Shown here one piece after another: positions 2,982 through 3,151 of a stretch of DNA of 5,484 bases. Below the pieces are notes generated by a model that worked only from the letters and a program-made list of their open reading frames with translations, searched no databases and had not been told where the DNA came from. Numbering within the stretch: position 1 is the stretch's first letter; the number at the start of each line of letters is the position of its first letter. Origin of the DNA: a virus (lineage: Duplodnaviria > Heunggongvirae > Uroviricota > Caudoviricetes); the IMG/VR virus record IMGVR_UViG_2606217104_000010; one strand, written 5' to 3'. The position numbers were made by a program, and so were the translations under genes.

Positions 2982-3030
2982 TTGACTTTTTGAATAACTT
3001 TGGGGAAACTTGACACCAATAATGGGCGTT
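2982..3030 (+). promoter_or_regulatory. Late promoter PR' with the overlapping qut (Q-utilisation) region: -35 TTGACT (2982-2987), 17-bp spacer, -10 GAAACT (3005-3010), then the initial transcribed/pause region.
   Basis: Sequence ATTGACTTTTTGAATAACTTTGGGGAAACTTGACACCAATAATGGG aligns with lambda PR'/qut (TTGACT-TATTGAATAAAATTGGG-TAAATT-TGACTCAACGATGGG, from memory). It is positioned immediately after Q, as in lambda. Similarity to lambda is lost shortly after 3025. Confidence 0.75.
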
Positions 3031-3151
3031 TTTTACATGTCATTGATGAGTCTCAATAACCTGCCGCCGAGTAGTTTTTATGCTCTGAATTGTATTTGTG
3101 TAGTAAACATGCTGACTGCAATGTAATAGAGTTTTTTTAGCCTGTAACCTC

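Follow-up and report, generated by a model that had tools for sequence, protein, structure and literature searches.

Results

Organization of the locus

The window, by which we mean the whole stretch of 5,484 nucleotides that was analysed, covers the nin-to-late region of a lambdoid E. coli prophage. Its main components, apart from the details of the late promoter and its leader, are the following.

2–304, minus strand: N-terminus of an IS3-family transposase orfA (PF01527), abutting the truncated ninB
359–698: truncated ninB, of which only NinB profile positions 74–131 are left
Between ninB and the NinI gene: ninE, ninF and then ninG (1034–1657)
1654–2319: NinI phosphatase
2316–2939, plus strand: lambda-type antiterminator gene Q, 207 aa (PF03589, E 1e-57)
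Downstream of Q and upstream of the AT-rich stretch: the late promoter PR'
3121–4465, plus strand: cargo (moron) module, with 99.5% identity both to 434 and to the STEC prophages of Q82 type
4479–5484, plus strand: 5' part of a nanS-p type SASA sialate O-acetylesterase gene (Pfam DUF1737 and SASA)

The esterase gene, which runs off the end of the window, is a conserved right flank in common with Stx phages. Matches to Stx1 and Stx2 phages start only at window 4466, just 5' of the esterase start codon, with 77–87% identity (mostly 81–87%); since homology resumes at that point, the cargo occupies the slot taken in Stx phages by tR', the tRNA genes and stxAB. Compositional profiling gave a GC content of 0.51 for the Q gene, 0.39 for 3027–4465 and 0.56 for the esterase gene, so that the region in between has the deviant composition looked for in a moron. 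At the other end of the window, homology to phage 2B8 begins at position 359. As an IS element is inserted in ninB, the prophage may be severed from its own replication genes, and it may be defective.

The product of Q belongs to the lambda Q family, both by its Pfam match and by its 98% identity to lambda Q, and its reading frame is intact. Three substitutions (R138I, V140A and V205I) were found only in the window allele among the five sequences aligned. Codons 138 and 140 correspond to window 2727–2735, and the substitutions at these two codons adjoin the arm tip (residues 133–137), which touches the repositioned region 4 of sigma (PMC9388147).

The late promoter and its predicted Q-loading elements

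The promoter was delimited by alignment to lambda, HK446, HK97, P22, HK022, HK620, mEpX2 and HK544, and has these parts.

2982–3010, plus strand: PR' core promoter
2982–2987, plus strand: −35 hexamer TTGACT, by homology to lambda
2988–3004, plus strand: 17-bp spacer bearing the putative Q-binding element (QBE), by homology to lambda
3005–3010, plus strand: −10 hexamer GAAACT, by homology to lambda
3010–3026, plus strand: predicted sigma-dependent pause element, by positional homology to lambda TTGACT-C-AACGAT-GGG; it is made up of a −35-like TTGACA (3010–3015), a −10-like AATAAT (3018–3023) and GGG (3024–3026)

A simple consensus promoter scan does not flag PR'; its −35 hexamer and 17-bp spacer are homologous to the QBE region of lambda. 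The window AATAAT pairs with lambda AACGAT, with TTGACA before it and GGG after it, and pausing at this site is predicted. Lambda transcription starts at the first A of AACGAT, and by the same alignment the start in the window would lie at about A3018.

The preliminary description held that the sequence tracks lambda closely through PR'. This likeness had been overstated, as about 10 of the 52 positions of the promoter/qut core differ, including positions in the −10 hexamer and in the pause element. The −10 hexamer GAAACT is found in the window alone, TAAATT being present in all eight of the other lambda-type alleles compared; it matches the consensus at three of six positions and is weaker than that of lambda. 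In the QBE spacer, which is identical to lambda at 14 of 17 positions and differs at three, the window alone has AACT where the eight other alleles have AAAG or AAAA. The pause element has changed in the opposite direction, its AATAAT matching TATAAT at five of six positions, as against three of six for the AACGAT of the other eight. The TTGACA upstream is a consensus −35 sequence, set 2 bp from the −10-like element of the pause site rather than 1 bp as in the other alleles. The changes therefore bring the pause element nearer to consensus. Taken together with the 2-bp spacing of the pause element (3010–3023), R138I and V140A in Q could represent a co-variation of protein and DNA, as far as can be read from the alignments.

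Lambda-type homology ends within the first nucleotides of the predicted transcript

When compared in 20-nt blocks, the DNA of the Q gene and of the intergenic sequence is about 90–100% identical to lambda, HK446, HK97 and P22, and this identity is then lost abruptly. Strict local alignment of window 2316–3400 stops at 3014 against lambda, HK446 and P22, and at 3019 against HK97; BLAST and MAFFT extend the match over a 1-nt indel to a conserved ATGGG, and end at 3025/3026. Partial matches in E. coli genomes that cover PR' alone stop at 3014, 3019, 3025 or 3026. When the sequence past 3027 was compared with 600 nt of leader from each of lambda, HK97, P22 and HK446, local alignment scored 8–10 at best, which is the level of chance (shuffles, 8.3–8.5 ± 1.1). 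Strict local alignment and shuffles were used here because global alignment with cheap gaps returned 50–65% "identity" in unrelated DNA and misplaced the breakpoint.

The end of the alignment, the chance-level score downstream and the shift in GC content together show that the breakpoint and the compositional change are real. A mosaic breakpoint within 3011–3060, as originally proposed, is thus borne out by a sharp loss of homology at 3014–3026, and so is the divergence into AT-rich DNA (GC falling from 0.51 to 0.39) from which the lambda 6S/tR' sequence is absent. The proposal that the first 15–20 or so transcribed nucleotides are still lambda-like has to be abandoned: with the start at about A3018, the lambda-like span covers only about +1 to +9, and the expected pause position (+16/17) falls already in unrelated DNA.

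We also considered whether there might be no joint at all, the sequence from 3027 onward being homologous to the lambda 6S leader but very far diverged from it. Leaders do evolve fast, and the MAFFT output contains a few aligned columns; nevertheless, the local alignment scores equal those of shuffled controls, the composition shifts across 3027, and the same downstream DNA is found behind an unrelated, Q82-type cassette (see below). We therefore give this reading very little credence.

The seam is composite

The preliminary description spoke of one recombination joint. A breakpoint does exist, but the seam is made up of several parts; three boundaries, at 3026|3027, 3057|3058 and 3120|3121, delimit the following segments.

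3026/3027: first boundary, the end of all lambda/P22/HK97-type homology, at about +9|+10 (BLAST, MAFFT and strict local alignment)
3027–3057, plus strand: orphan segment of 31 nt, CGTTTTTTACATGTCATTGATGAGTCTCAAT, GC 0.32
3058–3120, plus strand: leader homologous to the 434/Q82-type leader, with 83% identity (17% diverged) and a 4-nt indel
3058–3079, plus strand: decayed counterpart, by alignment, of the 434-type intrinsic terminator, AACCTGCCGCCGAGTAG-T5 where 434 has AACCCGCTGCCGAGTGGG-T8

At the second boundary the sequence becomes homologous to that of phage 434 (OL657226) and of two STEC prophages, 95JB1 and STEC799, and from the third to the end of the window (3121–5484) the sequence is 99.5% identical to 434. 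The step between the two is pronounced, with 11 mismatches to 434 in the 63 nt of 3058–3120, all of them within 3062–3120, while the 2364 nt that follow contain only 11 (Fisher p 8e-13).

In the case of the orphan segment, a scan of IMG/VR gave the same allele alone, at 65 loci; a short-query BLAST search against phages gave 2B8 alone besides chance matches; and a scan of GTDB species representatives gave a single contig. This contig (JAIITD010000172.1, L075) is 3 kb long and comes from a metagenome-assembled genome labelled Veillonella sp.; it is most likely a mis-binned fragment of an E. coli prophage. The 31 nucleotides could stem from either recombination partner.

A 34-codon open reading frame at 3022–3126 has no Shine-Dalgarno sequence, and its frame is disrupted by the 4-nt indel in the 434-type allele; it was judged non-coding on these two grounds. 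The predicted RNA fold of 3018–3230 is no more stable than those of shuffled sequences (z 0.19), and an Rfam scan of 2800–4600 returned nothing in the leader (3011–3200) at E ≤ 1. A search for a short terminated leader RNA of the lambda 6S/StxS type yielded neither similarity above chance to the lambda, HK97 and P22 leaders, nor an Rfam match, nor a predicted leader terminator.

Terminator status of the leader

The known architecture of the antitermination cassette consists of a QBE, a sigma-dependent pause element and a terminator (PMC9388147). In silico, no intrinsic terminator is seen in the window leader, where this architecture would place one, after the pause site and ahead of the late genes. 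The terminator of the 434-type leader (AAACCCGCUGCCGAGUGGG-U8) is strong, at −13.3 kcal/mol and z −2.8, whereas no comparable hairpin is predicted for its window counterpart (AACCUGCCGCCGAGUAG-U5). Neither a consensus scan nor a scan for a hairpin followed by a U-tract found an intrinsic terminator in 3018–3218, the latter scan recovering the 434 version. The first strong predicted intrinsic terminator past PR' is that at 4366–4392, about 1.35 kb downstream, and our prediction is that none lies between the two. The hairpin scan overlooked the long-stem tR' of lambda itself, so its negatives are not absolute and unusual terminators can escape it.

These observations raise the possibility that the function of tR' has been lost, and that PR', which is constitutive in lambda lysogens, would be read over 1.37 kb, across the genes for the membrane protein and the DUF3927 protein, as far as the terminator of the PasD-like region; the usual short PR'-tR' RNA would thereby become a lysogenic-conversion operon with the sRNA at its 3' end. 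In its favor, the scans of 3018–3218 were empty, 434-type alleles hold a strong terminator at the homologous position, and the decayed version is fixed in the 65 IMG/VR loci and in 572 complete genomes (see below). The leader is also poor in C (0.14, with G at 0.22), and hence a poor substrate for Rho, and there is a precedent for an sRNA derived from PR' in StxS, a PR'-tR' RNA that is processed into an Hfq-binding sRNA (PMC7547250). Yet the terminator loss is itself a prediction, made with a scan that missed lambda tR'; the constitutive output of PR' may be low, given its weak −10 hexamer; polymerase might be retained at the near-consensus pause element in the absence of Q; and a candidate promoter of the cargo (3172–3201) could explain expression without PR'. 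We regard this reading as rather unlikely. A more elaborate form of it, which we put forward more tentatively still, is that in the terminator-less leader the short RNA of PR' has expanded into an operon whose 3' end would yield an Hfq-binding sRNA, the weak −10 hexamer and the near-consensus pause element tuning its output.

The cargo module

The region to the right of the leader contains the following features.

3172–3201, plus strand: candidate cargo promoter TTGTTA-18-TATCAT with a TG extended −10, from a consensus scan alone
3219–3935, plus strand: multi-pass membrane protein, 238 aa from ATG 3219 (phrog_1521, E 2e-154, annotated without function)
4021–4179, plus strand: DUF3927/TciB-like small membrane protein, 52 aa (PF13064, E 3e-14; phrog_1470, TciB-like)
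4190–4395, plus strand: PasD/STnc100-like sRNA region (Rfam RF02076), ending in a strong terminator at 4366–4392

Of the transcription signals that a moron may carry for itself, the terminator at 4366–4392 is strong and the promoter is a consensus match; promoter-like sites around 3172–3201 are no commoner than in shuffled sequences, which makes the candidate a weak lead. It lies just 5' of the ribosome-binding site of the membrane-protein gene, in a stretch 100% identical to the Q82-type alleles.

The membrane protein, which would have 252 aa if translation began at an alternative start at 3177, gave no match in Pfam, NCBIfam or PADLOC, and the 434 record labels its counterpart "putative membrane protein". 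Within its gene there is a tandem 24-nt repeat (3278–3325, 79% identical), encoding a doubled GWG-x-(S/A)-(F/Y)-(F/Y)-Y-G motif (GWGSAYFYG and GWGTSFYYG).

The region at 4190–4395 is probably the sRNA PasD. The full-length RF02076 model matches it with 37.7 bits (E 3.5e-6), which is below the gathering score of 47, and pasD has been placed directly upstream of the esterase gene in NC_049952, that is, in 2B8, and tied to Q and LpxR neighbourhoods (preprint 10.64898/2026.05.13.724894). The sRNA-like region and its terminator are overlapped by a 36-codon open reading frame (4315–4425) with a lipoprotein-like signal (MRTSLMLFPSIIFLVSSGC...), at the place where the 434 record has a 62-aa "putative membrane protein". 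In L009 (O157:H7 MB9-1), which has the same joint between lambda-type Q and cargo, the sRNA region and the esterase N-terminus are strongly diverged (window 4156–4500 and 4571–4653); these stretches are additional mosaic patches within the "cargo".

The edges of the cargo show no direct or inverted repeats suggesting transposition or site-specific insertion, and the module contains no mobility genes and no tRNA genes.

Spread and age of the joint

The sequence 2940–3400 is present at full length, with 98–100% identity, in 572 of 5,426 complete E. coli genomes, and the genomes with the window-type joint include O157:H7, O26, O103 and O111 strains. The cargo is found behind a Q82-type leader in about 100–125 further complete E. 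coli genomes. Among the matches listed, the window-type PR' variant always occurs with the cargo, and those that cover PR' only reach at most 94% identity, which indicates that this promoter variant travels with the window cargo. In all 65 of the IMG/VR contigs in which the orphan segment occurs, it is flanked by the same sequences on either side; three of the 65 loci have arisen by homologous recombination, their leader changing from the window type to the 434 type between 3075 and 3083. Phage 2B8 (NC_049952) is 100% identical to window 2900–3300. Our literature search found no paper on the annotation of the 434 genome or on the window joint; the joint is already contained in annotated public records, in 2B8 and in the "434B nonhomology" feature of 434.

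By these comparisons the joint is neither private nor recent, but old and fixed. A recent insertion of the cargo, private to this prophage and at a site close to qut, would account for the abrupt loss of lambda homology and for the drop in GC content. It is very hard to reconcile with the rest of the evidence: 572 complete genomes, which represent many serotypes, 65 viral contigs and 2B8 all have the same joint base for base, the window-type PR' variant is never without the cargo among the matches listed, 434, a classical phage, derives from a window-like backbone (see below), and the cargo has neither flanking repeats nor mobility genes. We consider such an event highly improbable. Of the joint "that brought in the cargo" in the preliminary description, what stands is a non-homologous joint within the early transcribed region of PR'; a private acquisition does not. 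It had also been envisaged that the downstream sequence might prove to be the normal continuation of a known Q/PR' allele, and it is indeed normal for the window-type allele, the breakpoint with respect to lambda being real nonetheless.

The same data bear on the functional state of the late switch. Many prophages of O157 strains are defective. PR' and qut could be a decaying remnant in cryptic prophages, as the −10 hexamer GAAACT is unique among the nine alleles, the pause element is altered too, the pause position lies in unrelated DNA and an IS3-family element interrupts ninB in the window. With a weak −10 hexamer and three changes in the QBE spacer, the function of the allele rests on the viability of 2B8. 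This phage comes from a screen in which temperate coliphages were recovered as plaques on indicator strains (PMC6969025); being plaque-forming with an identical sequence, it shows that the arrangement supports lytic growth. In addition, the Q reading frame is intact and 98% identical to that of lambda, the changes in the pause element move toward the consensus, and the allele is kept at 99–100% identity over hundreds of genomes. A dead switch is in our opinion improbable. The earlier statement that a Q-modified polymerase would be loaded at an intact qut can be kept in part: the elements expected to act in cis when Q is loaded (the QBE-bearing spacer, the −35-like TTGACA and the −10-like AATAAT) are all found left of the joint, and the identical sequence works in 2B8, but "intact" goes beyond the observation, given the unique changes in the −10 hexamer, the QBE spacer and the pause element.

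Exchange of the Q cassette in 434-type prophages

Phage 434, 95JB1 and STEC799 carry an unrelated, Q82-like Q and share DNA with the window from 3058. They also keep the first 68 nt of the lambda-type Q gene (window 2316–2383) and then diverge into lpxR. In these 434-type loci, a 30-codon remnant of lambda Q comes first, and after it lie a moron on the opposite strand, lpxR (lipid A deacylase), then ylcG and then the Q82-like gene; the block from Q remnant to Q82-like gene has these positions.

L001 (phage 434), 624–2954: Q-remnant/lpxR/ylcG/Q82-like block
L007, 93–2433: same block
L008, 116–2454: same block

The N-terminal remnant of lambda Q shows that the Q cassette was swapped against a resident leader and cargo. 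Read from the alignments, the 434-type arrangement is a window-like backbone in which 2384–3057, possibly up to 3120, was replaced by lpxR, ylcG, the Q82-like gene, PR'82 and a terminator. With PR'82 inferred to be TTGCAA-17-TATACT, the right joint of this cassette lies at about +27 to +30. The fragment that has served in experiments as the functional unit of phage 82 runs from −90 to +30, and pausing occurs at +25 (PMC4914094); the 434-type joint is therefore just beyond the pause and coincides with the end of the −90 to +30 fragment. The cargo proper is exchanged by homologous recombination farther to the right, to judge from the near-identity from 3121 and the crossovers at 3075–3083. The record of 434 gives its source as Paris sewer, late 1950s.

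Among other phages with a lambda-type Q there are two more leader types, unrelated to each other, which part at about +22. One, in lambda and HK446, is the 6S sequence; the other, in P22, HK97, HK022, HK620, mEpX2 and HK544, has a terminator at about +28 to +60. Joints directly 3' of the Q-loading elements thus recur, as would be expected if Q, the QBE and the sigma-dependent pause element co-segregate and the DNA downstream is free to vary.

Discussion

In this study, we have placed at base resolution the point at which a lambda-type late promoter gives way to unrelated DNA. The boundary at 3026|3027 is very probably the right edge of a lambda-type Q-PR'-qut cassette, joined by an old and now fixed recombination to another leader and an AT-rich moron cluster. 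Identity drops abruptly from high to none, and the flanking parts have been recombined differently in other phages; the seam is an ordinary module boundary of a lambdoid mosaic. A modest exception to this ordinariness is the leader, which is apparently terminator-less and is combined with an atypical promoter and pause element.

The position of the boundary is in agreement with what is required for Q loading. RNA polymerase would start at about A3018, sigma-70 would re-bind the near-consensus AATAAT, with TTGACA just upstream, and the complex would pause a few bases into unrelated, T-rich DNA. From its binding site between the −35 and −10 hexamers, Q would load onto the paused complex, and the modified polymerase would then cross the 200-nt leader, both genes for membrane proteins and the PasD terminator, and go on through nanS-p and the lysis genes. 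All of the cis elements for Q loading would be at or to the left of the joint, so that the DNA to its right need only be transcribable; joints at this place would be viable and Q cassettes could be exchanged as units. The preliminary description saw the polymerase immediately entering foreign sequence. This is correct, in that the downstream DNA is unrelated to lambda, but it applies to every lambdoid late operon and is no anomaly.

Comparison with known systems supports the assignment. With the Q-PR'-qut-6S-tR' region of lambda the window has in common the −35 hexamer, the 17-bp spacer (14 of 17 positions), the place of the pause element and Q (98%); they differ in the −10 hexamer (TAAATT in lambda, GAAACT in the window), the pause sequence (AACGAT and AATAAT) and the spacing within the pause element (1 bp and 2 bp), and the window, where homology ends at +9, has no 6S and no tR'. 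In the case of 434 ("434B nonhomology", OL657226) and the Q82-type STEC prophages, the leader from 3058 and the cargo from 3121 (99.5%) are the same, with membrane protein, DUF3927/TciB protein, PasD-like region and SASA esterase common to 434 and the window, whereas the Q cassette is unrelated, its joint lies at about +27 to +30, and a strong terminator is intact where that of the window is decayed. P22/HK97/HK022-type phages have the same Q family and PR'/qut, and in them, too, a joint shortly after the transcription start leads into a leader unrelated to lambda 6S; this joint lies near +22, a strong terminator (about +28 to +60) comes immediately behind it, and the lysis genes are next, a moron cluster being absent.

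The late region of Stx phages (Q-PR'-tR'/StxS-tRNAs-stxAB-nanS-p) offers another parallel, as it carries accessory genes in the same slot between late promoter and nanS-p, and Q-dependent expression of the cargo on induction is expected in the window prophage as in Stx phages. The window differs in its Q family and has no stx, no tRNA genes and no terminated leader of the StxS kind. As with lambdoid morons in the sense of Hendrix and Juhala, the cargo consists of extra AT-rich genes between conserved modules, with an intrinsic terminator at the end; in contrast to them, its own promoter is weakly predicted and its terminator is part of an sRNA-like element.

All together, the locus provides a worked example, at base resolution, of Q-PR'-qut cassettes that swap as units, with the right joint directly past the pause-inducing element. 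The joint falls at +9 in the window and near +22 in P22/HK97, and 434, with its Q82 cassette, has it at about +27 to +30. One accessory module is in this way driven by at least two unrelated antiterminators. In EHEC and EPEC, the expression of this cargo (membrane proteins and PasD sRNA) may thus depend on the Q cassette upstream and on the leader variant, with or without a terminator, in parallel with stx. If true, the terminator-less leader would be a variant on the rule by which PR' fires constitutively and its transcript is terminated at once.
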